A DNA stretch of 63,953 nucleotides, filler included, from an uncultured bacterium (GCA_965372715.1; 3 parts of 3 records of this genome joined end to end with filler, not necessarily neighbours in it), one strand, 5' to 3'; shown: positions 432 to 56,838, numbered from the whole stretch's first letter. The notes: generated by a model not told the origin, from the letters alone. Numbers and translations: made by a program.

Positions 432-526
432 GTGCGCCGCTTTCACTTGCCGCGGCCTGACGCGGCGTGAGCACTGTTGGAGGACGTCCTATTCTCTGGA
501 TCACGGCTTCCAAGTTCAAAACAGAT

Positions 527-590
527 GTCTATCAGAGGGTGGTGTCGAGCCACCACCAATGAAAGCGGCGTCAAGCCGCCGCACTCCAAA
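527..590. repeat. REP-like family B copy (AAAGCGGCGTCAAGCCGCCGCACTCCAAA) within a ~63-bp duplicated block
   Basis: Near-identical to 27760-27822 (one indel, one substitution); inverted copies at 27648-27676 and 63936-63953. Confidence 0.85.
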
Positions 591-29045: not shown

Positions 29046-29136
29046 GTCGGTGCATAGGTCGTAGGGGCGGTGTCTCAGACTCGCCCGCCTACATGAATCC
29101 CTGCGGATACGAGGCATCTTATGCGACCATCAATTC

Positions 29137-29596: not shown

Positions 29597-30976
29597 ATGA
29601 CGTCTCGTGGAAGAGTTCTCATCGTCGATGACGACGCGTCCGTTCGCTCAATTCTGTGTGAAGTGCTCGCCCAGGACGGTTTCAGCGCCGACAGCGCCTC
29701 GACCGCCGAGGAGGCGCTGCGGAAGACATCGTCCCGAGAGTTCGACCTGGTCATAACGGACGTCCGAATGAGCGGGATGGACGGTCTTCAGCTCCAGCAC
29801 AGGATCAGGACACAAAACGATCACGTCGAGGTTGTGATAATCACGGCCTACGGGGACATCCCGATGAGCGTTCAGGCGATGAAACAGGGCGCGTTTGAGT
29901 TCTTGACCAAGCCATTTGGCAGCATCGATCACGTCGTCCTGGTGGCGAGGCGCGCCGCCGAGAAGGCGCAGATGGCCAAGAAGATCGAGGAACTCACGGA
30001 CTCGCTTGAGGAAAGAGGCCACTTTGAGAAGCTTATCGGCGCAAGCCAAGTGATGCAAAACGTGTATCGGCGCATTTCGCAGCTCGCGAAGACCGATTCC
30101 ACCGTTCTTCTATTGGGTGAAACGGGAACAGGCAAGGAAATGACCGTGAGAGCAATCCACAATCTGGGCAAGAGAAAAAAGGCGCCGTTCGTGGCGGTCA
30201 ACTGCGGCAGTCTGCCCGAATCCCTACTCGAGAGCGAGCTCTTCGGCCACGCGAAAGGCTCGTTCACCGGCGCCACATCCAGCAAGCTTGGGCTCTTCGC
30301 ATCGGCGTCTGGTGGCTCCATTCTGCTGGACGAGGTGGAGGCGGCAAAGGAAGGCACCCAGATCGCGCTTCTCAGGGTTCTGGACACGAAGGAGATTCGA
30401 CCCATAGGCAGCAACAAGAATCAAAAGGTTGACGTCCGGGTCTTTGCTGCGAGCAACGAGGACCTTGAGTCGCGAGTCGAGGATGGCTCGTTCCGAAAGG
30501 ACCTCTATTACAGGCTTGTCTCGGCGATCATCACGCTGCCGCCTCTTAGAGAGCGTCGTTCGGACCTGCTAATGCTAGCGGAGTATTTCCTGAAGCTCTA
30601 TTGCAGGACGGATGGGCATCAGGAAAAGCGACTCTCGGCACGAACTCGCGAGCTCCTCATGAGATACAGCTGGCCTGGCAATGTGCGGGAGCTCAAACAC
30701 GCGATAGAGCACGGCGTGATCTTCTCGAGCGGTCCAGTTATAGCCCCAAAAGACCTGCCGGACGCGGTAACGTCCGCCGCTTCTGCCCAAGCCCCTGGGT
30801 TCATGACTATAGAAGAGCTCGAAGGGAGGCACATAGAGGAGGCGCTTCGACTGACGGCGTTCAATAAGGCAAAGGCCGCCAAGCTTCTGGGTCTGACCCG
30901 GCAGGCACTTTACCGCAAGATCGAGCGCTACCGCCTAGGGCCCACCGCCGCACTGACCGGAAACGGACACTTCTGA
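29597..30976 (+). CDS. Sigma-54-dependent response regulator (NtrC/PilR-like bEBP)
   Basis: Receiver (VDDD, ITD, K-P), AAA+ GETGTGKE, ESELFGH, GSFTGA, WPGNVREL, Fis-type HTH. Confidence 0.95.
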   Translation: MTSRGRVLIVDDDASVRSILCEVLAQDGFSADSASTAEEALRKTSSREFDLVITDVRMSGMDGLQLQHRIRTQNDHVEVVIITAYGDIPMSVQAMKQGAFEFLTKPFGSIDHVVLVARRAAEKAQMAKKIEELTDSLEERGHFEKLIGASQVMQNVYRRISQLAKTDSTVLLLGETGTGKEMTVRAIHNLGKRKKAPFVAVNCGSLPESLLESELFGHAKGSFTGATSSKLGLFASASGGSILLDEVEAAKEGTQIALLRVLDTKEIRPIGSNKNQKVDVRVFAASNEDLESRVEDGSFRKDLYYRLVSAIITLPPLRERRSDLLMLAEYFLKLYCRTDGHQEKRLSARTRELLMRYSWPGNVRELKHAIEHGVIFSSGPVIAPKDLPDAVTSAASAQAPGFMTIEELEGRHIEEALRLTAFNKAKAAKLLGLTRQALYRKIERYRLGPTAALTGNGHF

Positions 30977-31828: not shown

Positions 31829-32082
31829 GAGGCTGGGACATAAGTCGTTTTGCCCTCTGCCCCTGTTGTCTCATAACATAATAATACCATGAATCTGCAA
31901 TCATTTCAAGATCGATCCACCCGTCAGGATTTGGAAGATATCGATCGTATTCTGGCTATGCAAAGGCATTTGCGACCTGTAGGGGCAGGCCCCCGTGCCT
32001 GCCCTATCTTTATTGATCGTAAAGGGCAACCGCGGGGGGATTGCCCCTACACTGGGCGGGCGGTCACTTATGTCCCAGCCTC
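31829..32082. mobile_element. MITE-like element with 17-bp perfect TIRs and 49-bp flanking direct repeats
   Basis: GAGGCTGGGACATAAGT (31829-31845) / ACTTATGTCCCAGCCTC (32066-32082); DRs 31780-31828 and 32083-32131 match 43/49. Confidence 0.75.
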
Positions 32083-32441
32083 CTTGCCCCGCCCTTTTTT
32101 GATGTGACCGACGTGTGAAGGGTGCGGCAAGCAGCACCCCTACAGAGCCGCAAACCATCCATCGCATCCCACACCGACGAAATGCGACAGAGCCTGGGGC
32201 GAGCGCGACGACGAGGATGCCAATGTCCGGAAACGGACGGTGGTCGAAGCAGGAGGCAATCGTGGCATCTGGGTGGGGATCGGGCGCCGCCTGGCGGCCT
32301 AGTGATTGCCCATGCGTCCGGATACGGACAATTCACTCGTGAGATGCAATGTGGGCTTAGGGAGCACTAGAAGAGCGGCCATGTGGGATCGTGCCTGCTA
32401 GCGGGGATGCAGGAACAGTCGTGCAAAACAGATCGTTAAAG

Positions 32442-32456
32442 TGGCACGAAACATGC
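32442..32456 (+). promoter_or_regulatory. Sigma-54 -24/-12 promoter of the pilin gene
   Basis: TGGCACG-AAAC-ATGC ~215 bp upstream of the pilin start. Confidence 0.7.
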
Positions 32457-32670: not shown

Positions 32671-33081
32671 GTGGGACAGCAACAGCTACTATTGATTGTA
32701 TTGAGCATCATCATCGTCGGCATCGCGGTGGTCATCGGCCTCGGTCTCTTCAGCGAAGGCGCTGATCAGGCCAACATCGACCAGGTCGTTCAGGACGTCG
32801 TGTCCATGGGCGCGAGGGCTCAGCAGTTTTATATGAAGCCAGCTGCGCTCGGTGGCGGCGGCCAGAGCTTTGTCGGAATGCTCATCACTGACGTAGGCTC
32901 TGACGAAAATAGGAACGGCGACACTTATGTAGTGTCCGGCGCGGCAGCGGCCCAAGTCACGATCACTGGCACGTGCGTTACCGCTAAGATGGACGACGAC
33001 AGCACGGCAGTTAACGTCGTTGGGACAGTAACCCCAGTTGATGTTACGACGGTCATCAACAAGACAGCAGGCGGCGAGTAG
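32671..33081 (+). CDS. Putative major type IV pilin (non-canonical, MGQQQLLL N-terminus)
   Basis: Strong RBS, hydrophobic N-helix plus amphipathic helix, 136 aa, own promoter and terminator, first gene of a T4P locus. Confidence 0.8.
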   Translation: MGQQQLLLIVLSIIIVGIAVVIGLGLFSEGADQANIDQVVQDVVSMGARAQQFYMKPAALGGGGQSFVGMLITDVGSDENRNGDTYVVSGAAAAQVTITGTCVTAKMDDDSTAVNVVGTVTPVDVTTVINKTAGGE

Positions 33082-33098
33082 TAAGCAAAGTTGCCATG

Positions 33099-33132
33099 GG
33101 CAGGCCCAACTCGCTTTGGGCCTGCCTTTTCT
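33099..33132 (+). terminator. Intrinsic terminator after pilin
   Basis: GGCAGGCCCAA-N6-TTGGGCCTGCC-TTTTCT. Confidence 0.85.
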
Positions 33133-33156
33133 ATCTAACGCAAGGGGCGAGGACTT

Positions 33157-34509
33157 ATGGCAGAGTTTAGATACCATGGGATGAGCGCCGCTGGCCGACC
33201 TGTTCAGGGGATGCTCGCGGCAAAGAACAAGAAGGCCGCGCAGCTGAAGCTCTCGGAGTTAATCCGGACCAAGCGGTTCAGTTTGAGAAGTCTCGAGAAG
33301 AAGCGGACCTACGTCTATAAAGTTCAGAAGGGAACCGAGAGGCCCATCAAAGGTGAGAGAAAGGGCTACTCCCCCGAGGAGCTCACCCGCGCGCTTCGTG
33401 CAATCGGTTACCGAGTGCTATCCATCCGCCGGAAGCTCCTGGACTTCAACTTGGGTCCGCCCACAAACGACGTGGTGATGTTCATCCGGCTTGGGGCCGA
33501 CCTCTTGCGTGAGAAGCTGCCGTACGACGAGGTGCTTCAGCTGCTGGGAAACGACATCCAGAACAGGACGCTGCGAGAGGCGATAAAGGAGATCAGTAGC
33601 GACCTCAAGGAGGGTAAAGAGGGCAAGGAAGTATTCGGAAAGCAGGAGGCCGCCCTGGGGCATTTTGCGGCCCACATGCTCGGCGTCGCATCGACAAGTG
33701 GGAACATGGTGGAGATATATGAGAGCACAGCGAAATTCCTTGAACGAAATCAGACGTTCAAGAAGAACCTGAAAAGCGCGCTGATCATGCCGGCCGTCAC
33801 GGTCTTCTTGCTGATGTGCGCCGTGTTCTTCTATGTTGGCTACATATTCCCCGAGACAGCGGAGATGTTCCTCAAGTTCGACATGGTGCTGCCTCCGATG
33901 ACGCAGTTTACGCTCGATCTAAGCCACTTCCTAACGAACAACGTCGTGATCATCCTTGTGGCGATATTCGCGCCATTGATTATAGGGCTGAAGTTCGCGT
34001 TCAGCAACAAAGGCCGGCTGATCGTCGATAGGTATATCATTAAATTGCCAATCATAGGGTCAGTTCTGCACAAGACCAGCATCGAGATATTTTGCAGGGT
34101 ATTCACGGCCCTCTACTCCGGTTCGGGCGAGAACATTGAGGTAATTAAAACAGCAGCTGAGGCGTGCCGGAACCGCTATATGGAGCGTCAGATCAAGGAG
34201 ATCACACTCCCGATGATGATCAAGGAGGGCACAGGCCTGGTCGAGTCGCTTGAGAAGACAGGCGTTTTTACCGACAACGCGCTGAACAGGCTCCGAGGCG
34301 GCGCAGAGACAGGGACACTGCGCAAGACGGCGCTTCAAGTGGCCAACTACTATGAAAAAGAAACGACGTATAGGATGAAGGCGATCATCGACTGGGTGCA
34401 GGTGTTCATCGCTTTCTACGTGCTTATCGTTATGACGGCCATCACGGTTGTGTCCTCTGAGACAGCGATCATAACCCCCAAGAGACCGGGAGTTACAACG
34501 AGCCAATGA
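33157..34509 (+). CDS. pilC: Type IV pilus/T2SS inner-membrane platform protein (PilC/GspF)
   Basis: MAEFRYHG...G..V.G N-terminus, two GspF-type repeats with TM segments, LPPMT, GAETGTL. Confidence 0.85.
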   Translation: MAEFRYHGMSAAGRPVQGMLAAKNKKAAQLKLSELIRTKRFSLRSLEKKRTYVYKVQKGTERPIKGERKGYSPEELTRALRAIGYRVLSIRRKLLDFNLGPPTNDVVMFIRLGADLLREKLPYDEVLQLLGNDIQNRTLREAIKEISSDLKEGKEGKEVFGKQEAALGHFAAHMLGVASTSGNMVEIYESTAKFLERNQTFKKNLKSALIMPAVTVFLLMCAVFFYVGYIFPETAEMFLKFDMVLPPMTQFTLDLSHFLTNNVVIILVAIFAPLIIGLKFAFSNKGRLIVDRYIIKLPIIGSVLHKTSIEIFCRVFTALYSGSGENIEVIKTAAEACRNRYMERQIKEITLPMMIKEGTGLVESLEKTGVFTDNALNRLRGGAETGTLRKTALQVANYYEKETTYRMKAIIDWVQVFIAFYVLIVMTAITVVSSETAIITPKRPGVTTSQ

Positions 34510-36290
34510 TACCACCGCCGCCGCAGGGAAGATTTGGAAGCACGCTCGTCGATAACGGCGTCATAGATGATGAGACGCTGGACAAAGCGCTCCAGATACA
34601 AGGAACCGAGGTTGACGCCAACCGCCGTAAGCTCGGCGAGATACTGGTGGGTGATCTCGGCATAGACCGCCACGAGGTCTATAAAGAGATAGCGAACATC
34701 TATGCGTTCCGCACGATGGAGCTCTCCCAGGAGGACCTTGAAGAGGATAGAATCAGGTTCATAAGCGACCTCATGGAGAGCATCAGCGGCGAGATGCGGA
34801 GCTATCTTATCAATAGGAGGGTCCTTCCCTATAAGCTCCACTCGGTCAAGCACGGGGTCCTGATAGTCGTCTGTCCCGACCCGACGGACCGGGAGGTGCA
34901 GAGCCTCGTCACGGAGTTCGGCTACCGGCGATACGAGATCGCTTACATGCGCCTCGAGGAAATCCAAGAGCTGGCTTCAAAGCTCGTGCCCCAGGAAGAG
35001 GAGTTCCTCAAGATACTTGAGCAGGCCAACGACGCGGTCGAGATGATCGAGGATACCGACACCGAGCTGGACGAGGAGGCGCTCGAGGCGGAGATCAATA
35101 AGAGCCTTTTGACCAACCTGATTGAGGGCTGCCTGGTCGAGGCGGTTCGCAAAGGCGCGTCCGACGTCCACGTCATTCCCAAGCCGGGGAATATCACCGA
35201 GTTCTATTTTCGCGTGGATGGCAAGCTCCAGCTGTGGTATCGGCACGAGGGTACCAAGCCCGAGGCGATTTCGGCGGTTATCAAGGATAGGTCAAAGAAC
35301 GTCGACCGGTTTGAGTGGGACTCGGCACAGGACGGGTTCATTCAGCGGACGATAGACCACTACTTGATGCGGTTCCGCGTCTCAATCATGCCGATTGTCG
35401 GCCAGGAACTGAGGCGCAAGCTGGAAAGCATCGTCATCAGGGTTATCGATGACCGGAAGCTGATAACGGACTTCGAGGAGCTGGGCTTTCAGAAGCAAGC
35501 CAAGGATGATTTCGTCCGGGCCATCAGCAAGCCTCAGGGCATCGTGATGCTGACTGGCCCAACCGGCAGCGGCAAGAGTACGACTTTGGTCGCGGCCCTA
35601 AGTCACGTCATGAACCCAAGCATCAACGTCGTAACAATCGAGGACCCCGTCGAGTATCACATAGCCGGCGCGAGGCAGATAAAGCTCGGGCCCAGGCTCG
35701 ATTTTGACTTGGCGATTCGGTCGATATTGCGGCACGACCCGGATGTGGTGATGGTCGGCGAGATGCGTGACAGGAAGACCGCAGAGATAGCGGTCAAGAT
35801 GGCCAACACAGGGCATCTAACGTTCACGACACTTCATACGAACGATGCGATAAGCGCGGTAGCAAGGCTCTACAAGATGGGCATTGAGCCATTCCTGCTC
35901 GCCTATTCGATAAACATCGTGGTTGCGCAGCGCCTCGTCCGGACTTTGTGCCCGGACTGCAAACGCCCGATCAAGGACCTAGACCCGAAGATACCGCTTG
36001 ATCTCGGCTTCACCGAACAGGAGGTAGAAGCGACCACGTTCTATGAGCCGGTCGGCTGCAAGAAGTGTCGCCTCGGCTACAAGGGACGTATTGCTATCCA
36101 CGAGGCGTTCTACTTCACCAGGGAGGTCAGGCAGCTTATCTATCAGGCATCTACCGAGATAGACGAGGACGGTCTGCGCGCGCAAGCAGTCTCTGACGGA
36201 ATGCTGACGCTCCGCGCCTCGGGCCGGGAGAGAATCAAGAAAGGCTTGACCACAGTCGAAGCAATCGCCTTCGCGACTGCTGATGATTAA
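34506..36290 (+). CDS. pilB: Type IV pilus extension ATPase (PilB/GspE) with MshEN-like N-terminus
   Basis: ASDVH, GPTGSGKST, TIEDPVEY, LRHDPD, GEMRD, GHLTFTTLHTN, CxxC...CxxC. Confidence 0.92.
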   Translation: MIPPPPQGRFGSTLVDNGVIDDETLDKALQIQGTEVDANRRKLGEILVGDLGIDRHEVYKEIANIYAFRTMELSQEDLEEDRIRFISDLMESISGEMRSYLINRRVLPYKLHSVKHGVLIVVCPDPTDREVQSLVTEFGYRRYEIAYMRLEEIQELASKLVPQEEEFLKILEQANDAVEMIEDTDTELDEEALEAEINKSLLTNLIEGCLVEAVRKGASDVHVIPKPGNITEFYFRVDGKLQLWYRHEGTKPEAISAVIKDRSKNVDRFEWDSAQDGFIQRTIDHYLMRFRVSIMPIVGQELRRKLESIVIRVIDDRKLITDFEELGFQKQAKDDFVRAISKPQGIVMLTGPTGSGKSTTLVAALSHVMNPSINVVTIEDPVEYHIAGARQIKLGPRLDFDLAIRSILRHDPDVVMVGEMRDRKTAEIAVKMANTGHLTFTTLHTNDAISAVARLYKMGIEPFLLAYSINIVVAQRLVRTLCPDCKRPIKDLDPKIPLDLGFTEQEVEATTFYEPVGCKKCRLGYKGRIAIHEAFYFTREVRQLIYQASTEIDEDGLRAQAVSDGMLTLRASGRERIKKGLTTVEAIAFATADD

Positions 36291-36311
36291 AAAGATTAGG
36301 AGGGAGAGAAG

Positions 36312-36794
36312 ATGAGTTCAGGGCAGATGATGCTTGCATTGGGAGCGATTGTGATGCTCTCAACGCTGGCCCTTACCCTCAACAGCATTGTGCTGGACGG
36401 CAACAAAACGATGATGGAGAGCGAGCTCTACATCTCCGGAACATCGGCTGCCCAGTCCTTTGTGGAGCACGCCGCGGTATTAGCGTTCGACGCGTCCGTT
36501 GGCACCCACGATGCATCCACGTTCCCCGACGCGTTCACCCCGCCAGGAGGCCTTGGGCCAAAGGCGGGCGAGAGTTACCCCAATTTCAACGATGTGGACG
36601 ATTTCAATGGCTACTCAAGCACAGTCTCTACAACAAGAGCAGACTTCAACGTTTCCATAACAGTCGAGTATTGCGATGAAAGCGGCAACATCTCAGCCAG
36701 CCGCACATTCTTCAAGAAAATGGAAGTTACTGTTAGCAGTCCGTTCATTCCGACGGATGTCGTCGCGAGGCGGATATTCGCCTACAGCATTTAG
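36312..36794 (+). CDS. Minor pilin-like protein (PilV-like)
   Basis: N-terminal hydrophobic helix, FNDVDDFNGY motif, K...V.V C-terminal strand; in T4P operon. Confidence 0.65.
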   Translation: MSSGQMMLALGAIVMLSTLALTLNSIVLDGNKTMMESELYISGTSAAQSFVEHAAVLAFDASVGTHDASTFPDAFTPPGGLGPKAGESYPNFNDVDDFNGYSSTVSTTRADFNVSITVEYCDESGNISASRTFFKKMEVTVSSPFIPTDVVARRIFAYSI

Positions 36795-36819
36795 GGACCT
36801 CAAAAGGAGGTGAAGCAGG

Positions 36820-37383
36820 ATGGCAATTGCAGACCTTATCGGCACTACCATCGTGGCGGGCATACTGATTCTGATGACGATAGCGCTTACGGCCAGTGTG
36901 TCCGAGTCGACTACTCAACAGATGCTTGACGTTACGACTCAGCAAGCACTCACGACGATCAAGAGCATGATCGAATACGATTTCCGCAAGATGGGATTTG
37001 AGGCGGCCCCCGGGACGGCGATTACTTCAATGGGCACTGACAACATCACCTTCTGGGCGGGAATCGACACGAATAACGACAACGTCGTTGACGGCGTCAA
37101 CACGATCACGTATCAGCAGAGCGACACATCCCAGGCTTCTTCAACTCCCAACCCTGACGACCGCATACTCTATCGGACAGTCGGGGCCGCGGCGCCTGTC
37201 GCGGTGGCCCTGGGCGTGACGAACTTCGCTCTCGAGTACTACGATGCCAGCGGAAACGTGACGGCAAGTCCCGCCGACGTCAAGACTATCATGGTCAATC
37301 TGACCGCGCAGAGCACAATCCCCTATGACGGCACGTACTCGGAGGCTGCCTGGGAGAAGAGGATCAGCCCCAGGAATCTGTGA
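36820..37383 (+). CDS. Minor pilin-like protein (PilW-like)
   Basis: Hydrophobic N-helix, IEYDFRKMG, LEYYD..G, C-terminal PRNL typical of PilW-type pilins. Confidence 0.7.
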   Translation: MAIADLIGTTIVAGILILMTIALTASVSESTTQQMLDVTTQQALTTIKSMIEYDFRKMGFEAAPGTAITSMGTDNITFWAGIDTNNDNVVDGVNTITYQQSDTSQASSTPNPDDRILYRTVGAAAPVAVALGVTNFALEYYDASGNVTASPADVKTIMVNLTAQSTIPYDGTYSEAAWEKRISPRNL

Positions 37384-37442
37384 GCATCGTCGGATGGGAT
37401 ATTTGGGCAATGCGCGCTGGCTAAGATAAAGGAGGCTCAAAA

Positions 37443-38492
37443 ATGGGAAAAGCATGCATCATAATGGTTCTCGGGCTTGCTATCTCTCTGTCGTTTCTGA
37501 TGATGGGGGCGCACGAAAGAAGCAACGACGCCGTATCCAATTCCAGCGGTTCATTCAGCATGTCCAATGCTGGGAATCTTGCCCACTCAGCGGCAAATGC
37601 TGCTCTCTACAACATCACGTCTGACCCCAGCTGGACTAGCGCCGTTGACACCAGGAGTCTCTCTGGCGGGACGTGCTCCGCAAGCTGCGAAAGAGTGCCA
37701 GCCTCGGTCAACTCCAGAATAACTGCGACGGGGACCTACTTCCAGCGGACACACAACGTGGAAGTTCTAGTGCAGACTCGTTCCCCGAACCTCAGGTCTG
37801 CAATCACGGCCAACCCGCCAGTTAAGACGCTTGGAACCCTGACGGTTGACGGTAGGGATTACGACGAGAATGGAAATGTTATCCCGGGCCAGGGCGGCCT
37901 GGCAATTGAGTGTTCAGACGCCATCATCCGGGGCGGCAGTTCCGTATATGGTGGGACCGACGAGAACGGGGATGACTTTACGCCTTCCGAGAGCTACGAT
38001 GCCAGTATAGTCAGCGAAAACGCCACGTTTGACGGCGGATTTCCCGCATCTCCGGACGCGGTGTTAGGGCTTCCTGAGGGGACACTGAAGACTTACGCCA
38101 TGACTGGGGCCGACGGCAGCCAATACACGACCGACCCTACCACTCTTATGATGCCCTTAAGTGGCGTAACCTACGTGGAACTCCCTGACGGCGGGATATG
38201 GAACGATGGCAACTTCACTGGCGGCAGCAAGGGGATACTGGTGGTTCACAGTCCCGCCAAGGATGCGATTCTTAAGAATTTCTATGGGTCATTCTGCGGA
38301 ATAATCATCGCCGACAACGTCGATAAGATCCACGGCACGATTATTGGCAACTTGACCGTCATCGGCCCCACTGCGGGCGGCAACTGCATCGGAAACGGCG
38401 AGGGCAAGGTGCTGTATAGCACGCATTTCATATTCGACGCGCTAGGTGATCTGCCCCAGCCGGACCTCGAAATCCTCTCATGGTGGGAGTGA
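37443..38492 (+). CDS. Minor pilin-like protein (PilX-like), paralog 1
   Basis: Hydrophobic N-helix, A.NLA.S.A motif, ITATG, C-terminal beta-solenoid-like region ending ILSWWE. Confidence 0.7.
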   Translation: MGKACIIMVLGLAISLSFLMMGAHERSNDAVSNSSGSFSMSNAGNLAHSAANAALYNITSDPSWTSAVDTRSLSGGTCSASCERVPASVNSRITATGTYFQRTHNVEVLVQTRSPNLRSAITANPPVKTLGTLTVDGRDYDENGNVIPGQGGLAIECSDAIIRGGSSVYGGTDENGDDFTPSESYDASIVSENATFDGGFPASPDAVLGLPEGTLKTYAMTGADGSQYTTDPTTLMMPLSGVTYVELPDGGIWNDGNFTGGSKGILVVHSPAKDAILKNFYGSFCGIIIADNVDKIHGTIIGNLTVIGPTAGGNCIGNGEGKVLYSTHFIFDALGDLPQPDLEILSWWE

Positions 38493-38682
38493 CGGATGAA
38501 ATCCCGACCGTCTCAATGCCGACTTGCTGATGCAGGCAATTGTGGCCTTGGCAGGAGGAGCGAATTGCCCCGTGCGATCCAGAAGCAGAGATTAGCCCAA
38601 AGAATCTGTGAGCATCGTTCGATAAGCAAAGCACAATTTGCACTTGCGATTATCTATGGAGAAGAGATAGGAGCGCAGGAAG

Positions 38683-39750
38683 ATGGGTAAAGCATCAATC
38701 ATTATGGTCCTGGGAATTGCGGTCGCCATGTCTTTTCTCACGATGGGGGCTCAGGAGAAAAGAAGCGAGGCAGTCGCCAATGCCTGTCAGGCGTATAATG
38801 TTTGCGGGTCAAGAAACCTCGCCCATTCAGGCGCGAACGTCTCACTTTCCAATTTGACAATGAACCACAGCTATCGGGGCTCAGTATCCGCGGACCTCTC
38901 GGACGGGTCCTATTCTGCGACTTGCGTGAAGATGCCGGCGACCACCAACGCGAAGATAGTCGCTACCGGGACCTACGAAGGAACCACGCACAACGTGGAG
39001 GTTATTGTCGAGCTCTACTGCGAGGGCCTCAAGTCAGCGATCACGGCAAAGCCCTGGGTGAAGACCCTCGGCACGTTGGACGTTGACGGCCGAGACTACG
39101 ATGAAAACGAGAACATCATCCCAAACGAGGGTGGACTGGCCATCGTCAGCACGCAGACCATAACCAGAGGCGGAAACTCGAAATACGGCGGAACAAACGA
39201 ACTGGGACAGGATTTCGTTCCGTCAACGGACTTCGATCCAAGCTTGATCGAGGAGAACGCCTCGTTCGATGGCGGCTTCCCGATCTCGCCCGATGCGGTG
39301 GTCGGGGTTGACGACGGCACGCTGAAGGCGATCGCTCAGAGCGGTGTGGGCGGCAGCCAATATGCAACGGACCCCGACGACATTACCATACCTTTGAGGG
39401 GCGTCACCTACTTGGAGCTGCCGGATGGCGGAACCTGGCTCTCGCCCAACTTAACGGATGGCCACTGCGGTTTCGACTGTAACAGCTCCGGGATACTCGT
39501 GGTCCACAACGCCAATAAGAACGCCGTGCTGAAGAACATGCGCGGCAGCTTCTACGGGCTCATAATCGCAGACGATGTGGACAAAATCCACGGCAAGGTA
39601 ACCGGCAACGTAACTGTTATAGGCGACTCCCCGAGCGGCAATTGCATTGGCAACGGCACCGGCGATGTCCATTACAGCTCGTATTACATCATGCAGGCGC
39701 TGTCCGACCTGCTCAATAATCAGCCGAAAATCATTTCCTGGTGGGAGTAG
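38683..39750 (+). CDS. Minor pilin-like protein (PilX-like), paralog 2
   Basis: Clearly homologous to 37443-38492 along its length; ends IISWWE. Confidence 0.7.
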   Translation: MGKASIIMVLGIAVAMSFLTMGAQEKRSEAVANACQAYNVCGSRNLAHSGANVSLSNLTMNHSYRGSVSADLSDGSYSATCVKMPATTNAKIVATGTYEGTTHNVEVIVELYCEGLKSAITAKPWVKTLGTLDVDGRDYDENENIIPNEGGLAIVSTQTITRGGNSKYGGTNELGQDFVPSTDFDPSLIEENASFDGGFPISPDAVVGVDDGTLKAIAQSGVGGSQYATDPDDITIPLRGVTYLELPDGGTWLSPNLTDGHCGFDCNSSGILVVHNANKNAVLKNMRGSFYGLIIADDVDKIHGKVTGNVTVIGDSPSGNCIGNGTGDVHYSSYYIMQALSDLLNNQPKIISWWE

Positions 39751-39754
39751 TTAA

Positions 39755-41011
39755 TTGGAAACAGAAGCCGCAGTTCTCGACACTGATGTGTTGATGGAGG
39801 CGAGGGGGATACTCTCTCGTCTGATCGCTCACGTGCCGGCCTCGCACGAGGGTTTTGAGCGCCAGATGTTCATCGGCAAGCTCCTCGCGGAGCTCACGCA
39901 CGAGCAGCGCCAGAGCCTCAAGACCGTCGTGGATTCCTGGCTTCACAAGACAGTAGAACTTCAGGCCTCGGACATTGACGTGGGCAGCCATGGCTGCGAG
40001 AGCAAGATATGGTTCCGGGTATTCGGGTTCAAAAAGCCGTGCCCGGAGCTCGGCTCGTTCTCGACAGATGAGACGGATTTCCTGGTTCAGAGCCTCTTGA
40101 TGGACAGTCAAAGAGAATACCTTTACGAGTGGCGCAACCTTGACTTCTCTCACACGATCCAGCACAACGGCACTCGGGTCCGCTTCAGAGGCGACATGTA
40201 CTTCGACCTGAACCATCTGGCCATGAACATGAGACGGATCAATGAATTCATTTATCCGTTCAAGGACCTCGGCTTCCATCCAAACATCGCCAGGGCGCTT
40301 TCGCTGACGCACGTGAAGCAGGGACTGATACTGATTACCGGAATCACGGGTTCAGGAAAGAGCACCACGCTCGACAGCATCATTGACGCAAACAACAAGA
40401 CAGCCGATGCGCACGTGGTGATAATCGGCAGCCCGATTGAGAACATCCATACGAGCCAAAGATGTCTCATCCGCCATCGCGAGGTCGGGCGCGACGTGAT
40501 GTCATTCAAGGAGGGCGCGATACAATCGCTAAGGCAGGACCCGGACATCATAGTGATTGGCGAGATGCGTGATCCAGACACAATTCTGACCGCACTTGAG
40601 ATCACTGACAGTGGCCACAAGGTTTTCTCGACGCTGCACACGGGTTCGGCGGTCGAGAGCATCGACAGGATAATCGCCGAGTGTCCGACGGTCGTGCAGG
40701 AGAGAGTGCGGATGCGGCTTGCGGATGTTCTGACCGTGATCGTGTCGCAGAAGCTCGTTCCGAGCCCAACTGGACGGCTTCAGCTCGCCAAAGAGGTTCT
40801 GCTCGTCGATTCTTCAGTCCGGGCAGCGATCAAGAACAACAACACGGGTGAGATCTACCAGATGATCTTCGAGTCGCAGAACGAGGGGATGATCACAATT
40901 GAGCAGGACCTTTACCGTCTATATCGGCTCAAACAAGTATCAAGAGATAACGCCATGAACTTTGCGAACAATAAAAAGAGGCTGGCCGAGTTGCTTCGGA
41001 GGGAATTATGA
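39755..41011 (+). CDS. pilT: Type IV pilus retraction ATPase (PilT/PilU family)
   Basis: GITGSGKST, HREVGRD, LRQDPD, GEMRD, GHKVFSTLHT, SQKL; TTG start. Confidence 0.88.
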   Translation: METEAAVLDTDVLMEARGILSRLIAHVPASHEGFERQMFIGKLLAELTHEQRQSLKTVVDSWLHKTVELQASDIDVGSHGCESKIWFRVFGFKKPCPELGSFSTDETDFLVQSLLMDSQREYLYEWRNLDFSHTIQHNGTRVRFRGDMYFDLNHLAMNMRRINEFIYPFKDLGFHPNIARALSLTHVKQGLILITGITGSGKSTTLDSIIDANNKTADAHVVIIGSPIENIHTSQRCLIRHREVGRDVMSFKEGAIQSLRQDPDIIVIGEMRDPDTILTALEITDSGHKVFSTLHTGSAVESIDRIIAECPTVVQERVRMRLADVLTVIVSQKLVPSPTGRLQLAKEVLLVDSSVRAAIKNNNTGEIYQMIFESQNEGMITIEQDLYRLYRLKQVSRDNAMNFANNKKRLAELLRREL

Positions 41012-43629
41012 GAAAAGAGGCAATAGGATTATCAATTGAGGGGACCGACGTCAAGGTCGCCCACATTGCGTTTTCTCACAGAGGCGTCATCCTAAAACGG
41101 CTTGAGGTTGCTCAGCTTTCCGGGCCGCTTGGCGTTGCCGCCGAGGAGGAAAAACTGGAAAGCGAATCGCTGGACGCTTTTGAGGAGGCGTTTGGTGAGG
41201 TGAGTCCAACCAAGACCGGGCTCGACCAGAAAGCGGAGGACGAAGAGCAAGAAGAGGAAGAAGCCTCATCCACGTTGCTCGGGGTCCTCTCCGGATACGA
41301 TCTAACGAAGGTTAAGATCGGCGTAAATCTCCCCGAGGACTCGGTCAGTTTCTACACGTTGAGCGATACTTTCGCGATCAAGGGCCGTAAGTTAAAAAGG
41401 GCCCTGATCGATATGGTCTCGCCCAAGCACGACGGCGCAATCTCGCCGGAGATGGTTGACTACATCAAGGCTGCCGACAAGAACCTTGCGTGCCTCGTCT
41501 GCAACCAGGAGCCGGTGTTTCTGGAGGTGTTGAAGGAGCTCAAGCCGTTCATGGGCCGTAACAAGCCCTACATAGGGCTGATCGATTCGGTGGACACAGC
41601 GCTGATGGGGCTTGTGAGGGCGAACCACGAACTGGTGGACGGCGAGATAACCGCGATAATCTATGTCGGCGCCGACAGCACCAGGATCACAATAATGAAG
41701 GGCCGAGAATACGTGAGGTTCTTGCCCTCAATCCAGGAGGGCGCCAATTCCTCCCAACTCCTCAACACAGTATTCAGCAAGATATTGTTCGAGCAAGACG
41801 AGGGCGGACTACCCGAAATCAATCACGTTGTCCTTGCTGGTGAAGCCGACATGCCTTCCGCGCTCGAGTTCTTCTCCAGAGAAATGCCTGCTGCAAGGGT
41901 GGAAGCCATCAAGTATGGCAAGTTCGCCGGAACCGAGATGGAACCATTGAAGATCCCAGCGCCTCTTCCGAGCTTTGCGCTGGCGCTGGCGCTGGCGAAG
42001 AAAGCCCTCGAGCCAACCAACCCTGACTACTACCAGACGGACTTCACACCGGACTACCTCAAAGAGTCGCAAAAGCCGTTCCGAATAGCATGGCACGGTC
42101 TGCTTTCGCTTCTAGTCATCTTTGCGATGAGCCTTCTTCTCGTTGTCAAGGGCGGATACAACTACGTCGAGATGGGCGATCTGGAGACGGACACCTCGAA
42201 ATACAATCGCCTGACGCAGCTGGCTCAGCCGCTCCTATACGAGATCGATATGCTCAACCAGCAGATTTCGGGCTATGAGTCCGAGATGGCTCAGCTCGCT
42301 TCATTGGCGCAGGATTCACATATCTGGAGCGAATCGCTGGACAAGCTCTGCGACCTCACGGAACGTTGTGATTCGCTTTGGGTCGCAACCCTGAGTTCGT
42401 CGGAAGGCAGAGGCTACGTGCTCAGAGGCAAGTCGCGCACTCGGGAGAAGATAACCGCTCTTGCTAGCGCTTATCAGGACTCATATTTGGACCTCGTCAG
42501 CCGCGGTATGATTCGCGATTACCGGCTCTGGGACTTCACAGTGCGGGTTAAGTTCCCGGACGCCCTAGAGCCGCAGGTTTACCTCGCGAGGGTCAAGAAC
42601 CACGGCAGGGACGGCTTCGGGCAGAACGCCCACAGAGGTGTGGCTGAGCCAGCCGGTTTCGCCGCTAACATGCCGAATCTGGCCGCGTCAGCTCAGCTGC
42701 CAGCAATGCCGGGCGGGGAGTTCTCTCCGATGGTTCCCTCGTTCGACGTGCAAGCCTCTGGCATGGTTGGCGGGCTCTTTAGAGCTGGTTTCAACGCCTA
42801 CTATGAACAGGCCGAGCGCATCGCCGGCAGCCCGAAGCTTATGAGGCTCCAGACCGAGCAAGAGACGCGCGAGGCCGAGCAGCGGAAACTGTGGATCCAG
42901 CAGAGGCAAGCTCAAGAGGAGCAGAAGCTCGCTGCGACCGAGAAATCCGTTGACGAGCAATATCTGGGGCCGCACGTGAAGTCCTCGCAGAGCGCGCCGG
43001 TATTGGGCCCCGAGCCTGAGCCTGAGCCTGAGCCTGAGGTCGAACCACAGGCAATTACAAAGACGGACGGCGCCGAGCAAAAAGCCAAAGAGGCGCCTCC
43101 GAAGAGGGAGCAGGCGGACGGCTCCGGTGCGGCATTGAAGGCCGCCGAGAGCAAAGGCGCAACGACGAAAAAAGAAGAGCCGAAATCCCAGAAGCCTCAA
43201 GAGGTCGTAGGCTCCAAGCAGAACGCGGTGAGCGATTCCACGTCCAGCGCGACCGGTGGCGCCTACGATCGAGCGCTGGAGCTCTTCAAGGCTGGAGAAT
43301 ACAAACAGGCGGCCGGGCTATTCAACGAGGTGCTCGCGGCGCAGACGGACTCCAAGAAGGACCGCAAAGCCAAAGCGCATTACTGGCTTGGACACTGCCT
43401 CTTTGGCATAGGTGACTTTCAGGCGGCCATAGTGGAATTGGAGCTTGCGGCCAGTTGTAAAGACAAGAGTATTGAGGACGGTGTGCTCTTCATGCTGGGC
43501 AATTGCCACTTGAGGCTCGGCGACGAGCAAACCGCGAACGAGAAATATGCCAGACTGTTGAACGACTATCCCAACAGTCGCTTCGGACCGATTGCATCGG
43601 CCAGAACAAGAGCCTTCAGTCAACCTTAA
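41008..43629 (+). CDS. PilM-PilN fusion with low-complexity linker and C-terminal TPR domain
   Basis: PilM-like IGLSIEG..VK and VVLAGE, one TM, coiled coil, PilN-like W...L...LW....G, PEPEPE linker, CpoB-like TPRs ending YPNS. Confidence 0.7.
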   Translation: MRKEAIGLSIEGTDVKVAHIAFSHRGVILKRLEVAQLSGPLGVAAEEEKLESESLDAFEEAFGEVSPTKTGLDQKAEDEEQEEEEASSTLLGVLSGYDLTKVKIGVNLPEDSVSFYTLSDTFAIKGRKLKRALIDMVSPKHDGAISPEMVDYIKAADKNLACLVCNQEPVFLEVLKELKPFMGRNKPYIGLIDSVDTALMGLVRANHELVDGEITAIIYVGADSTRITIMKGREYVRFLPSIQEGANSSQLLNTVFSKILFEQDEGGLPEINHVVLAGEADMPSALEFFSREMPAARVEAIKYGKFAGTEMEPLKIPAPLPSFALALALAKKALEPTNPDYYQTDFTPDYLKESQKPFRIAWHGLLSLLVIFAMSLLLVVKGGYNYVEMGDLETDTSKYNRLTQLAQPLLYEIDMLNQQISGYESEMAQLASLAQDSHIWSESLDKLCDLTERCDSLWVATLSSSEGRGYVLRGKSRTREKITALASAYQDSYLDLVSRGMIRDYRLWDFTVRVKFPDALEPQVYLARVKNHGRDGFGQNAHRGVAEPAGFAANMPNLAASAQLPAMPGGEFSPMVPSFDVQASGMVGGLFRAGFNAYYEQAERIAGSPKLMRLQTEQETREAEQRKLWIQQRQAQEEQKLAATEKSVDEQYLGPHVKSSQSAPVLGPEPEPEPEPEVEPQAITKTDGAEQKAKEAPPKREQADGSGAALKAAESKGATTKKEEPKSQKPQEVVGSKQNAVSDSTSSATGGAYDRALELFKAGEYKQAAGLFNEVLAAQTDSKKDRKAKAHYWLGHCLFGIGDFQAAIVELELAASCKDKSIEDGVLFMLGNCHLRLGDEQTANEKYARLLNDYPNSRFGPIASARTRAFSQP

Positions 43630-43657
43630 TCACTGAAAGCAAATAGGGAGATGTAAG

Positions 43658-44533
43658 GTGAGCAACGCATTAAGAAGCACAATAGCGATCGGCGCCATCT
43701 GGCTGGTCTTGCTCCTCGTGGGAGGTTGGTACGTCTATTACAGGCAGGCGGGTGACCTCGAGGCGATTCGTGAGGAGAATAGGGAAGCCCATGAGGCCCA
43801 CGAGCAGATGCAGGCCAAGATCGACAGCCGAGGAGAAGTCAGGGCGACGCTCGCAAGGCTAACCGATCTGTGGTACGAGCGCAAAAAGGTGATCCCGGCA
43901 ACAGAGGACGCCAGGACATCATACAACTACTTCAATTGGTTGGGCCAGCAGTCGGGCTCGATGCTGATGTATGACTTCATCGTTCTTTCGGAAGACCCCG
44001 AGGCGTCGCCCCCCTCCAGAGTATATCAGCTCCGCGGGGAGGATGCTTTCGAAAACCTCTACAACTTCGTCTATTACCTCGAACATCATCCGCTTCTCTA
44101 CAAGATCGAGCAGTTCACTATTGACAGTGCGGCAATCGGTGAGAACGAAGAGGGCGACGTTCGGGGCGTCAGGTTTGACATGCACGTCAAGGTCTATTAC
44201 GGGACATCGTCGTCACTTTCGCAGTCTTACTCGCCTCGCGTCGTGGCAGGCCCGCCGAGACTGATAGACCCGTTCTATCCGCTTATACTCGACAAGCTGC
44301 CCCAGAACGCGAGAGGTCTTGCGCTGGTGGATGAGTCAAAGCTCCAGGCATTGACAAGCGATACCGCATTCATAATCGACCAGAAAGGCAAGCTGGTGTC
44401 GCTCCAGGTGGGCGATGAGGTCTTTCTGGGCTACCTAACGAAGATCGACGTTCAAAACAACGAGTGTGTATTCACGCTCAACCTGGGTGGAATAATCGAA
44501 AAATATACGATGCGACTCAACTTCAAAAACTGA
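43658..44533 (+). CDS. PilO-like protein with PilP-like C-terminal extension
   Basis: TM, coiled coil, PilO-like G...F..LY.F.Y.LE, then DPF motif and short beta domain (L.VGD...G.L..I). Confidence 0.65.
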   Translation: MSNALRSTIAIGAIWLVLLLVGGWYVYYRQAGDLEAIREENREAHEAHEQMQAKIDSRGEVRATLARLTDLWYERKKVIPATEDARTSYNYFNWLGQQSGSMLMYDFIVLSEDPEASPPSRVYQLRGEDAFENLYNFVYYLEHHPLLYKIEQFTIDSAAIGENEEGDVRGVRFDMHVKVYYGTSSSLSQSYSPRVVAGPPRLIDPFYPLILDKLPQNARGLALVDESKLQALTSDTAFIIDQKGKLVSLQVGDEVFLGYLTKIDVQNNECVFTLNLGGIIEKYTMRLNFKN

Positions 44534-44547
44534 GAGGGTAGGAAGAG

Positions 44548-45798
44548 ATGAAAAGGGCGATATCAGTCTCAATATCCATTCTTGTGCTGTTTGCGGCTTT
44601 CTGCTTTGCCGAATCAGAGCCACAAGGCGGCAAGCATCCGTTCGTTCCGAGAGAATACCCGATAGAACACTCGTCGGTTGACGAGCTTGTCTCACTCTCT
44701 TCCGGAACCCCGTTCGCGCAGGGCCTGTTCATATTGTCCAAGTTCTCAAACAAATTCGAGAAAAAAATCATAATCGACCCCGATAAGCACAAGGGCAACA
44801 TCGGTATCGATATAGAAAACATGCACTGGAAAAAGGCCTTCGAGATGATGTTGCGTGCTAATGGGCTTTGGTATGTGAGCTACGACACCTATTACGAGGT
44901 CATCGAACCAGCCGCCGCGGTCCCATCCCAAACAAAGGACGAGACAAAGAAGAAAGTGGCGCTCACGTCGGACACCCGCGAGGTCAGGATCAAGGCCACC
45001 TTCTTCGAGGGTGATAGGCACTTCCTGCACGAGCTCGGCATCGACTGGACGACGATAAGGGCCGGCACACTCAACGTGCAAGCGGGAAGCCCGGGCCACC
45101 AGAAGATCCTCGACCCCGTGGTGCGAACCGCGCTTGAAACATACACGGCTGGTTTCGGCAAGATGTTTGGCAAAGTCCGAGTTGAAGCCCTTCTAGACAC
45201 ATTGGAGAGTGCCCAGAAGGGGCGAATCATCGCAACACCCGAAGTCGTTGTTATGGTCGGCAAGACCGCTAAGGTCCTTGTGGGTCAGGAGTTCGCCGTC
45301 AACACGAGGGACTTCGCCGGCAACATCATCACTGAGTTCTACGAAACGGGGACAATACTGGAAGTGGCGCCCACTGTATTCAAGGACAAGAACGACCGAG
45401 AGTACATCCATCTTACGGTGTCGGTGATACGGTCGAGCCTCGTTGACCCTGTGAACCTGACGATCAACAAGACCGAAGTCAGCTCTTCCATACTCCTCAA
45501 TGACGGAGAAGACGCCGCAATAGCGGGGCTTTATTCCACCGAGCGGCGCAAGGGAAGGAGCGGCGTACCGTGGCTTAAGGACCTTCCGTTGTGGGTCTTC
45601 GGCTTGAGATACGTGTTTGGTTCCGACCGGATAGAAAAGATCGACAAGGAACTTGTCATCCTGCTCAACGCCGAGCTACTGCCCAAGCTCGCGGAGCGGT
45701 TCGCGGACATCGACAAAGAGTCGGACTTTGACAGGCTGGACAAGGAGCTCCACGAGACGGTCGAGCCGCTTTGGCCGCGTCCCGGCGAGAACAAGTAA
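44548..45798 (+). CDS. pilQ: Secretin (short PilQ/GspD-like)
   Basis: Signal peptide; V.I.A, IIATPEV, TGTILEVAP, IAGL, GVPWLKDLP...FG, ELVILL. Confidence 0.85.
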   Translation: MKRAISVSISILVLFAAFCFAESEPQGGKHPFVPREYPIEHSSVDELVSLSSGTPFAQGLFILSKFSNKFEKKIIIDPDKHKGNIGIDIENMHWKKAFEMMLRANGLWYVSYDTYYEVIEPAAAVPSQTKDETKKKVALTSDTREVRIKATFFEGDRHFLHELGIDWTTIRAGTLNVQAGSPGHQKILDPVVRTALETYTAGFGKMFGKVRVEALLDTLESAQKGRIIATPEVVVMVGKTAKVLVGQEFAVNTRDFAGNIITEFYETGTILEVAPTVFKDKNDREYIHLTVSVIRSSLVDPVNLTINKTEVSSSILLNDGEDAAIAGLYSTERRKGRSGVPWLKDLPLWVFGLRYVFGSDRIEKIDKELVILLNAELLPKLAERFADIDKESDFDRLDKELHETVEPLWPRPGENK

Positions 45799-45914
45799 CA
45801 AGTGAAGACAAGGTCAAAATTGAGGGACTGAAGCTCGTCCCCAATTCTGAGTCAGAAGTCGGGCATCGTAGCGGTTCACCGCACGGCAGGAAACCGGTTG
45901 CAATCATTGTGCCA

Positions 45915-56716: not shown

Positions 56717-56838
56717 CGTGGGGCTGGATTCTGGAGACGACCTGTGGGGCGGGCTTTCCAGCCTGCCTTTTGTAGTGATTGCTGCATTCCTCGGACGCGA
56801 CACTCTGTCACGCGAGACCCTGTCTTTGGCAGGCTGGA

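Follow-up and report, generated by a model that had tools for sequence, protein, structure and literature searches.

A stretch of DNA of 63,953 nucleotides, filler included, from an uncultured bacterium (GCA_965372715.1), referred to below as the window, carries from 32671 to 45798 eleven co-directional genes, identified by open reading frame (ORF) listing and direct reading, that probably encode a type IVa-like pilus whose pilins are translated without a leader and assembled without a prepilin peptidase. The pilins of type IV filaments normally need removal of a leader by PilD or PibD. Four parts are reckoned, by Berry and Pelicic 2015 (PMC4471445), to be shared by every type IV filament: a pilin with a class III signal peptide, a prepilin peptidase, an ATPase and a platform protein. 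The system described here departs from type IVa pili in two defining features, signal peptides of class III and a dedicated prepilin peptidase, and is apparently an undescribed and widespread variant of the type IVa pilus.

In the proposed scheme PilB, PilT, PilC, a PilM/PilN-like fusion protein, a PilO-like protein and a secretin would form the machine of a type IVa-like, probably retractile pilus. The pilins, a major one and four minor ones (of which one is PilV/GspI-like, one GspJ/PilW-like and two PilX/GspK-like), would be translated without a class III leader, would on entry into the inner membrane already have the form to which PilD cleavage must first bring canonical pilins, and would be polymerised without an A24 prepilin peptidase step. 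The role of the canonical Glu5 probably falls to a conserved polar residue at position 5 from the initiator methionine, which is Gln in the major subunit, Gln or Glu in minor pilin 1 and Asp in minor pilin 2; the PilX-like proteins have none.

Leaderless starts of the five pilin genes

Each of the five pilin genes has a Shine-Dalgarno-like GGAGG-type motif before its start and an in-frame stop 3–7 codons upstream (Table 1), and no ATG, GTG, TTG, CTG or ATN codon lies between stop and start in any of the five. A class III leader is excluded by these in-frame stops. The N-termini, ribosome-binding sites and upstream stops that an earlier note on this DNA had listed are all as described when the sequence is read directly, and its statement that no hidden leader exists agrees with the lack of any alternative start. 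Its further claim, that the five proteins have no basic leader, Gly-Phe junction or Glu at position +5, stands for leader and junction, whereas the lack of Glu is only literally true, because minor pilin 2 has Asp at position 5 and relatives of minor pilin 1 have Glu5. None of the five proteins matches a model in Pfam (N_methyl included) or NCBIfam; in contrast, eight prepilins encoded elsewhere in the same genome have normal leaders, G|F-T-L-I-E sites and N_methyl matches.

The leaderless start is a family trait and not a chance occurrence. The start motif of the major pilin is found in 113 ORFs in 80 of 80 related loci, with the upstream in-frame stop at a median distance of 4 codons and no alternative upstream in-frame start in 110 of the 113. 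Among 120 listed relatives out of 3070, 111 carry xG[QST]QQ at residue 1 (108 xGQQQ and 3 xG[ST]QQ); the other nine comprise seven gene calls that begin inside the helix, one 27-residue upstream extension and one protein starting MMGQQQ. An alignment of 32 rows shows little or no variation over residues 1–11 of the major pilin.

Pilin fold and family assignments

The AlphaFold2 (AF2) model of the major pilin (predicted local distance difference test, pLDDT, 76) begins with a 53-residue N-terminal helix (residues 3–55) and continues with a sheet of four strands. In VIA, type IV pilins take all of the top 15 structural matches to this model (Z 9.9 to 6.0), among them PilV (5v23, Z 9.9), Thermus PilA4 (6xxd, Z 9.5, covering model residues 2–134) and the full-length PAK pilin (1oqw, Z 8.6). 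Foldseek also places the full-length PAK pilin first, with weak E-values (best 0.13, probability 0.97). Minor pilin 2 is modelled (pLDDT 89) as a helix (residues 2–56) with a beta domain, and its top 14 Foldseek rows are Thermus TTHA1219, XcpW, EpsJ and GspJ, at probabilities of 0.97–1.00. The pilin fold on which the earlier note depended is thus borne out in modelling for the major subunit as a type IV pilin and for minor pilin 2 as a GspJ-type protein; by predicted fold, both are pilins.

The 349- and 355-aa proteins have a strongly conserved C-terminal domain in common with proteins of other phyla, and in six of these homologues a long leader of the ordinary kind, with Gly as its last residue, occurs together with PF14341 PilX_N. 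Judged by this sequence kinship, the two large proteins are PilX/GspK-like putative minor pilins, homologous to PilX_N proteins. For minor pilin 1 the closest named Atlas cluster is the PilV family (score 0.96), and its PilV-like character, indicated by language-model features only, is taken as a lead. Searches of PDB sequences with profiles of minor pilins 1 and 2 returned nothing meaningful. The genes for minor pilin 1, minor pilin 2 and the PilX-like protein recur together in related loci, and their order (small, J-like, K-like) parallels the order gspI-J-K. A predicted complex of minor pilin 1, minor pilin 2 and PilX-like protein a scored 0.81, yet one control scored 0.67, and the prediction speaks neither for nor against such a complex. 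The minor pilin 1 family also has an invariant acidic cluster (Asp94, Asp96 and Asp97 in window numbering) that resembles a metal-binding site.

Prepilin peptidase in carrier genomes

No A24 peptidase was found in the window locus with Pfam or NCBIfam models, in agreement with what had been claimed for it; the host genome nonetheless has one A24 gene, on contig C83. The same genome encodes eight canonical prepilins and two canonical secretin-containing systems, on contigs C37 and C55, where the prepilins adjoin their own ATPases, platforms and secretins. Because an A24 peptidase and canonical systems are present, the host genome alone cannot decide the peptidase question, and the co-occurrence of leaderless pilins with A24 (PF01478) was followed across other genomes. 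Of 14 control genomes, some of them archaeal, 12 gave an A24 match in the same search.

Among 40 carrier genomes from the fetched loci, 31 have no A24 match: 26 lack both A24 and N_methyl and five have N_methyl without A24, whereas seven have both and two have A24 without N_methyl. Two even samples were requested at a completeness of at least 90%. In the class around genome G028 (201 genomes), the pilin occurs in 104 and A24 in 11, with A24 in 10 of the pilin carriers and none in 94 of the 104; in the order around genome G007 (151 genomes), the pilin occurs in 125 (E up to 1e-10) and A24 in 21, all 21 of them carriers, leaving 104 of the 125 without it. In both samples together, 198 of 229 carriers have no A24 match; in the co-occurrence check that the earlier note had proposed, the prediction that the leaderless pilins do not go together with pilD is thus borne out.

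Three complete chromosomes (G007, G012 and G028) and two isolates (G020 and G032) contain exactly two T2SSE ATPases each, both within ∼12 kb of the leaderless pilin. A full examination of all five found neither the peptidase domain nor the N-terminal domain of A24, and no prepilin with an N_methyl match. The leaderless system is the sole type IV filament system in these five genomes. The idea that canonical prepilins encoded elsewhere are the real substrates of the machine is rejected because the leaderless system stands alone in these genomes; in the host, the canonical prepilins sit with machines of their own. Where Balneolales genomes do have an A24 peptidase, it is a protein of ∼220 aa whose gene adjoins canonical prepilins and lies a long way from the leaderless locus (in genome G004, near 3.02 Mb as against 0.77 Mb), an arrangement that matches the Cytophaga-type cluster as far as the available part of its description goes (PMC5553014).

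Machine proteins and ATPase lineages

The earlier note had reported PilB, PilT, PilC, PilMNOP-like and secretin genes in the locus. PilB, PilT, PilC and the secretin are recognised with Pfam or NCBIfam models; the PilM/N and PilO matches are weak, and no PilP-like gene was recognised in the operon. PilC has two Pfam T2SSF domains above the cut-off and NCBIfam GspF and PilC matches below theirs. PilB matches TIGR02538 with 396 bits, below the cut-off of 675.65, and GspE with 366 bits, and its best solved relative is Myxococcus PilB (3jc8, full length, E 1.8e-86). PilT, which like PilB is recognised by Pfam T2SSE, falls just below the TIGR01420 cut-off of 319.1 bits and has Aquifex PilT (2ewv, E 5.3e-64) as its best solved relative. 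The secretin, one of three in the host genome, has a Pfam match above the cut-off. The 873-aa protein has TPR matches in Pfam at residues 753–858 and matches the fused PilM/N-position proteins of the canonical clusters of the host weakly in profile comparison (probability 55% and 44%). The 291-aa protein matches NCBIfam GspM below the cut-off (E 0.0012) and, weakly, the protein in the PilO position on C37 (profile match, probability 21%). On these weak profile matches and their conserved position, the two proteins are tentatively assigned as PilM/N-like and PilO-like. No NCBIfam match to GspC or GspL was obtained in the operon, and that to GspM is sub-threshold only.

A maximum-likelihood tree was built from 44 ATPase rows of the host genome, five A24 carriers and ten other carrier loci (15 scanned); it has no root, and reference sequences of characterised systems are not part of it. 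The PilB proteins encoded at leaderless loci group into a single clade (19 rows, made up of 16 genes and 3 truncated duplicates; support 100/98) and the PilT proteins into another of 6 rows (support 100/100), with the other 19 ATPases, all canonical, outside both clades and no foreign row inside either. Of the PilB, PilT and PilC phylogeny that had been proposed, separate clades were thus obtained for PilB and PilT, within the ATPases of carrier genomes. At the PilB N-terminus (window 34506–34700) there are weak matches to MshEN and to a c-di-GMP-binding motif, both below cut-offs, a hint that c-di-GMP may control the extension ATPase.

Family size and conservation of the operon

The major pilin family has 3070 relatives in one library, and a profile search of 1.84 billion representatives retrieved 2292 clusters at 50% identity (E up to 0.001), 1633 of them at E up to 1e-10. 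Among the best 150 of the 2292 profile matches, 128 start with xGxQQ at residue 1 and nine more are leaderless variants, M-A-Q-Q-Q included; the remaining rows are three upstream extensions resembling miscalled starts and ten larger proteins (210–795 aa) with the head domain only, nine of which match that domain in 2–5 stretches. A protein of ∼270 aa in genome G000 (C1:60598-61416, minus strand) is 43% identical in its C-terminal part to the head of the leaderless pilin and has no pilin helix.

The 80 related loci are distributed over KSB1, Balneolales, Ignavibacteria, Melioribacteraceae, Kryptoniota, Calditrichota and Marinimicrobia, with Gracilimonas tropica, Gracilimonas sp. Q87 and Fodinibius salsisoli among the carriers that are isolates. 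The gene order pilin-PilC-PilB-PilT-PilM/N-PilO-secretin is kept across phyla of the Fibrobacteres-Chlorobi-Bacteroidetes (FCB) group. Among the 47 loci that are 15 kb or longer, the pilin is present in 47, PilC in 40, PilB/PilT in 39, the PilM/N-like protein in 38, the PilO-like protein in 37, the secretin in 35 and the response regulator in 18; no further family is widely conserved, and no peptidase or methyltransferase family was found among the conserved neighbours. A 167-aa ORF occupies the gap between PilB and PilT in 13 of these 47 long loci (L027:14070-14573 and 12 other Balneolales loci).

Thousands of these leaderless subunits are annotated as hypothetical, and the earlier note mentions similar MGQQQ proteins as hypotheticals in FCB-type genomes. 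A literature search, with most subscription journals outside its reach, found no description of this pilin type, so that the possibility raised there, that the subtype had already been described, gained nothing from the sources covered.

It is very improbable that the locus is a decaying, non-working remnant of a canonical type IV pilus that has lost its leaders, for although the core ATPases score below NCBIfam cut-offs, all eleven genes (11/11) are intact, the first eleven residues of the major pilin are nearly invariant over several phyla, and both the gene order, kept in dozens of loci, and the 2292 clusters speak against decay.

N-terminal residues and the question of cleavage

The major pilin has Gln at position 5 counted from Met1. 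In an alignment of minor pilin 1 with 15 relatives (16 rows, one relative with an uncertain start being left out), position 5 is Gln or Glu in 13 rows, and two others are acidic at position 6; immediately ahead of the conserved Gln or Glu the sequence varies, with G, S, Q, L, R or A. Minor pilin 2 has Asp5, and in 13 of 15 rows of this protein and its relatives Asp or Glu is found at positions 5–8. The PilX-like proteins have no polar counterpart at position 5, and canonical PilX and GspK are not known to have Glu5 either. Short forms of the PilX-like proteins have Lys or Arg within the first five residues in 89 of 97 cases, followed by A, V, Y, F, Q, T, S or L. Taken from sequence, the pattern reads as that of mature-type pilins numbered from the initiator methionine. 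Because the polar residue holds position 5 while the residue before it varies, a common cleavage site in the minor pilins is argued against.

A more specific form of the proposal, possible rather than probable, is that the pilins are never cut, the initiator Met, perhaps formylated or blocked, standing in place of N-methyl-Phe1 and Gln, Glu or Asp at position 5 in place of Glu5. It appears fairly unlikely that a minimal leader, consisting of M-G in the major subunit and of M-x-G-K/R-x in the PilX-like proteins, is instead cut off after Gly or Ala, by the A24 peptidase where there is one and elsewhere by an unrecognised peptidase, in which case the new N-terminal Gln might cyclise to pyroglutamate. 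We know of no precedent for a pilin leader of one or two residues. A cut of this kind would suit an alignment anchored on the C-terminal end of the helix, which sets Gly2 opposite the canonical −1 Gly, and a MAFFT alignment in which the M-G-K start of the PilX-like proteins is paired with the end of the leader in canonical PilX_N homologues. It is opposed by the 198 of 229 sampled carriers without an A24 match, by the five fully examined genomes without either A24 domain, by the absence of any conserved peptidase in the 47 long loci, and by the lack of a conserved small residue before the helix in minor pilin 1 or in the short PilX-like forms.

Several points weigh against assembly of uncleaved pilins without a peptidase, some of them in favour of a minimal leader. 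Position 2 of the major pilin is almost invariably Gly, with Ala as the rare and sole alternative, and is followed by Gln. Gly and Ala are the residues preferred at −1 by prepilin peptidases, and Met-aminopeptidase tolerates a wider range; because the restriction is thus narrower than Met-aminopeptidase needs, a cut between Gly2 and Gln3 by another enzyme is conceivable. The hhalign comparison with the canonical pilins of the host is weak (probability 47%) and has a two-residue gap, so that the N-terminal register is ambiguous within about two residues. The host genome and 31 of the 229 sampled carriers have an A24 peptidase that could act on the leaderless pilins. Two metagenome-assembled genomes (MAGs), G002 (L090:3593-3811) and G022 (L091:930-1424), encode clear canonical prepilins and have no A24 match, so that either these MAGs are incomplete or the A24 search misses some peptidases. 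Per-genome completeness values were not displayed for the even samples. The PilM/N and PilO assignments are both weak, and filament assembly, retraction, the absence of N-terminal cleavage and control by sigma-54 are inferred from the genes. With these points taken into account, a type IVa-like pilus of leaderless pilins assembled without a prepilin peptidase is still regarded as the probable nature of the locus.

Relation to known type IV filament systems

The resemblance to the type IVa pili of Myxococcus xanthus, Pseudomonas aeruginosa and Thermus thermophilus lies in PilB, PilT, PilC and the secretin, in the pilin fold of the major subunit, in a set of minor pilins of the PilV/W/X or GspI/J/K kind and in a sigma-54 regulator adjoining the pilin gene. 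The differences are that the major subunit has no basic leader, Gly-Phe junction or Glu5, that A24 is absent from the locus and from most carrier genomes, that the pilins fall outside the N_methyl and other Pfam and NCBIfam models and the ATPases into separate clades, and that the PilM/PilN-like protein is a fusion with a TPR domain and no PilP is recognised.

Type II secretion systems (T2SS) are not known to have PilT; here PilT is present, and GspC and GspL, two of the GspC-M components, have no match. The Cytophaga-type 'T2SS' (CHU_3191-3202) shares with the leaderless system the FCB superphylum, a type IV filament machine and divergent inner-membrane parts, but the available part of its description gives it an A24 peptidase within the cluster (CHU_3197) and a canonical GspG pseudopilin and lists no PilT (PMC5553014). 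Neither that peptidase nor a canonical GspG is present in the leaderless locus. In the part of their analysis available here, Denise et al. 2019 place the Bacteroidetes 'T2SS' with type IVa pili and not with T2SS (PMC6668835).

These relationships bear on the possibility that the product of the locus is a short pseudopilus serving protein secretion or DNA uptake, in the manner of the Cytophaga-type system, and not a surface pilus. FCB bacteria own a type IVa-related secretion system, as the accessible parts of two sources indicate (PMC5553014, PMC6668835); the minor pilins are of the GspI/J/K kind; and PilB scores nearly as high against GspE as against the PilB model. Such a pseudopilus is nevertheless judged unlikely: the operon includes a PilT-type ATPase that is conserved along with the other genes, the terminator that follows the pilin gene would suit strong expression of a major subunit, and the Cytophaga cluster, on what is available of its description, has an A24 peptidase and GspG of its own, the Balneolales A24 being encoded far from the leaderless locus.

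Loci for mannose-sensitive haemagglutinin (MSH) pili without a prepilin peptidase gene are described in the available part of one survey, always in genomes with another system that supplies the enzyme (Denise et al. 2019, PMC6668835). The MSH pili of Vibrio resemble the present system in such a locus and in the weak MshEN-type N-terminal matches of PilB; they differ in that MSH pilins have normal leaders, whereas the leaderless system can be the only one of its genome. In archaea, the EppA-dependent pilins of Methanococcus have Gln at +1, a Gly-Gln junction, no Glu5 and an N-terminal pyroglutamate. The leaderless major pilin shares the Gly-Gln junction and the lack of Glu5, and pyroglutamate would be possible if it were cut after Gly2, but the archaeal pilins have a real basic leader, a dedicated A24 peptidase and a machine that is not known to include PilT or a secretin.

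Genomic context and regulation

The window joins contigs C51 (1–29136), C52 (29237–56838) and C89 (56939–63953) with runs of N between them, so that neighbours across a join are not real; the leaderless-pilin operon lies entirely inside C52. The host assembly comprises 3.56 Mb in 112 contigs. The nearest relatives of C52 proteins belong to MAGs labelled Candidatus Coatesbacteria, with 81–84% identity for the major pilin. The features of the locus are collected in Table 1.

Table 1. Features of the leaderless-pilin locus and its upstream region, in window coordinates.
Feature	Position	Strand	Start codon	N-terminus	In-frame stop upstream	Basis
Sigma-54-dependent response regulator (NtrC/PilR-like)	29597..30976	+				Pfam Response_reg, Sigma54_activat, HTH_8
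Sigma-54-type -24/-12 promoter-like site, TGGCAC-N5-ATGC	32442..32456	+				One mismatch to pattern; ∼215 nt upstream of pilin start
Leaderless major pilin, 136 aa	32671..33081	+	GTG	MGQQQLLL	TAG 32656	Start, Shine-Dalgarno motif, structural matches to type IV pilins
Terminator-like hairpin, gap between pilin gene and pilC	33098..33127	+				12-bp stem with 8 GC pairs, then T-rich tail
PilC/GspF-type platform protein, 450 aa	33157..34509	+				Pfam T2SSF, two domains
PilB-type extension ATPase, 594 aa	34506..36290	+				Pfam T2SSE, 333 bits
Minor pilin 1, 160 aa, PilV/GspI-like (lead)	36312..36794	+		MSSGQMML	TAG 36297	Position and language-model features
Minor pilin 2, 187 aa, predicted GspJ/PilW type	36820..37383	+		MAIADLIG	TGA 36811	AF2 model, Foldseek
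PilX/GspK-like putative large minor pilin a, 349 aa	37443..38492	+		MGKACII	TAA 37422	Homologues with PF14341 PilX_N
PilX/GspK-like putative large minor pilin b, 355 aa, paralogue of a	38683..39750	+		MGKASII	TAG 38668	56% identity to a
PilT-type retraction ATPase, 418 aa	39755..41011	+				TIGR01420, 303 bits; Aquifex PilT 2ewv
PilM/PilN-like fusion with C-terminal TPR domain, 873 aa (tentative)	41008..43629	+				Weak profile match, TPR Pfam
PilO/GspM-like bitopic protein, 291 aa (tentative)	43658..44533	+				Sub-cut-off GspM, weak profile match
Secretin, 416 aa	44548..45798	+				Pfam Secretin, 95.8 bits

The response regulator upstream of the operon, which accompanies it in 18 of the 47 long related loci, is likely to be the activator of the pilin gene. 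Matches to the sigma-54 pattern are no commoner than chance over the window (56 found against 60.6 expected, no enrichment), and the -24/-12 site upstream of the pilin gene is therefore suggestive by its position only. The hairpin that follows the pilin gene would fit a highly expressed major subunit with partial read-through into the rest of the operon. Regulator, promoter-like site and hairpin together fit, by position only, the usual logic of pilA expression.

Downstream of the operon and convergent with it, a 721-aa polytopic membrane protein without a Pfam match is encoded on the minus strand (window 45915–48080). In the gap between the stop codons of that gene and of the secretin gene lies a perfect sigma-54 -24/-12 pattern (45900–45914, minus strand), directed antisense into the operon, which may be due to chance. 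Dispersed repeats of ∼75–155 bp, 80–99% identical and present on dozens of other contigs, are found at window positions 435–590, 29061–29136, 31957–32096 and 56743–56838; because two of them occupy contig ends, they probably caused the assembly breaks. An Rfam scan of the locus returned a chance-level miRNA match and nothing else. Of the 19 sequencing runs listed for the locus, each with a small share, every one is DNA and none is RNA.

Implications

The leaderless system represents a large conserved lineage without two of the four parts held common to type IV filaments. What is added here is its presence alongside canonical systems in a Coatesbacteria-like genome, the counts of co-occurrence and the genomes in which it stands alone, together with the position-5 pattern, the GspJ-type fold, the PilX_N link and the ATPase clades. 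Searches for pilins that rely on the class III signal would miss these proteins. In the available part of the report on the Melioribacter genome, pilT, pilQ, pilB and pilC are recorded and no pilA or pilD (PMC3534657); if the pilins are never cut, the reading of pilus genes in Ignavibacteria and their relatives as incomplete would be explained. Because cultured carriers exist (Gracilimonas, Fodinibius), the roles of the leader and of Glu5 are directly testable. Should the pilins indeed never be cut, a pilus lineage found throughout the FCB group would have dispensed with the prepilin peptidase, and would constitute a natural experiment on the purpose of the leader and of its removal.

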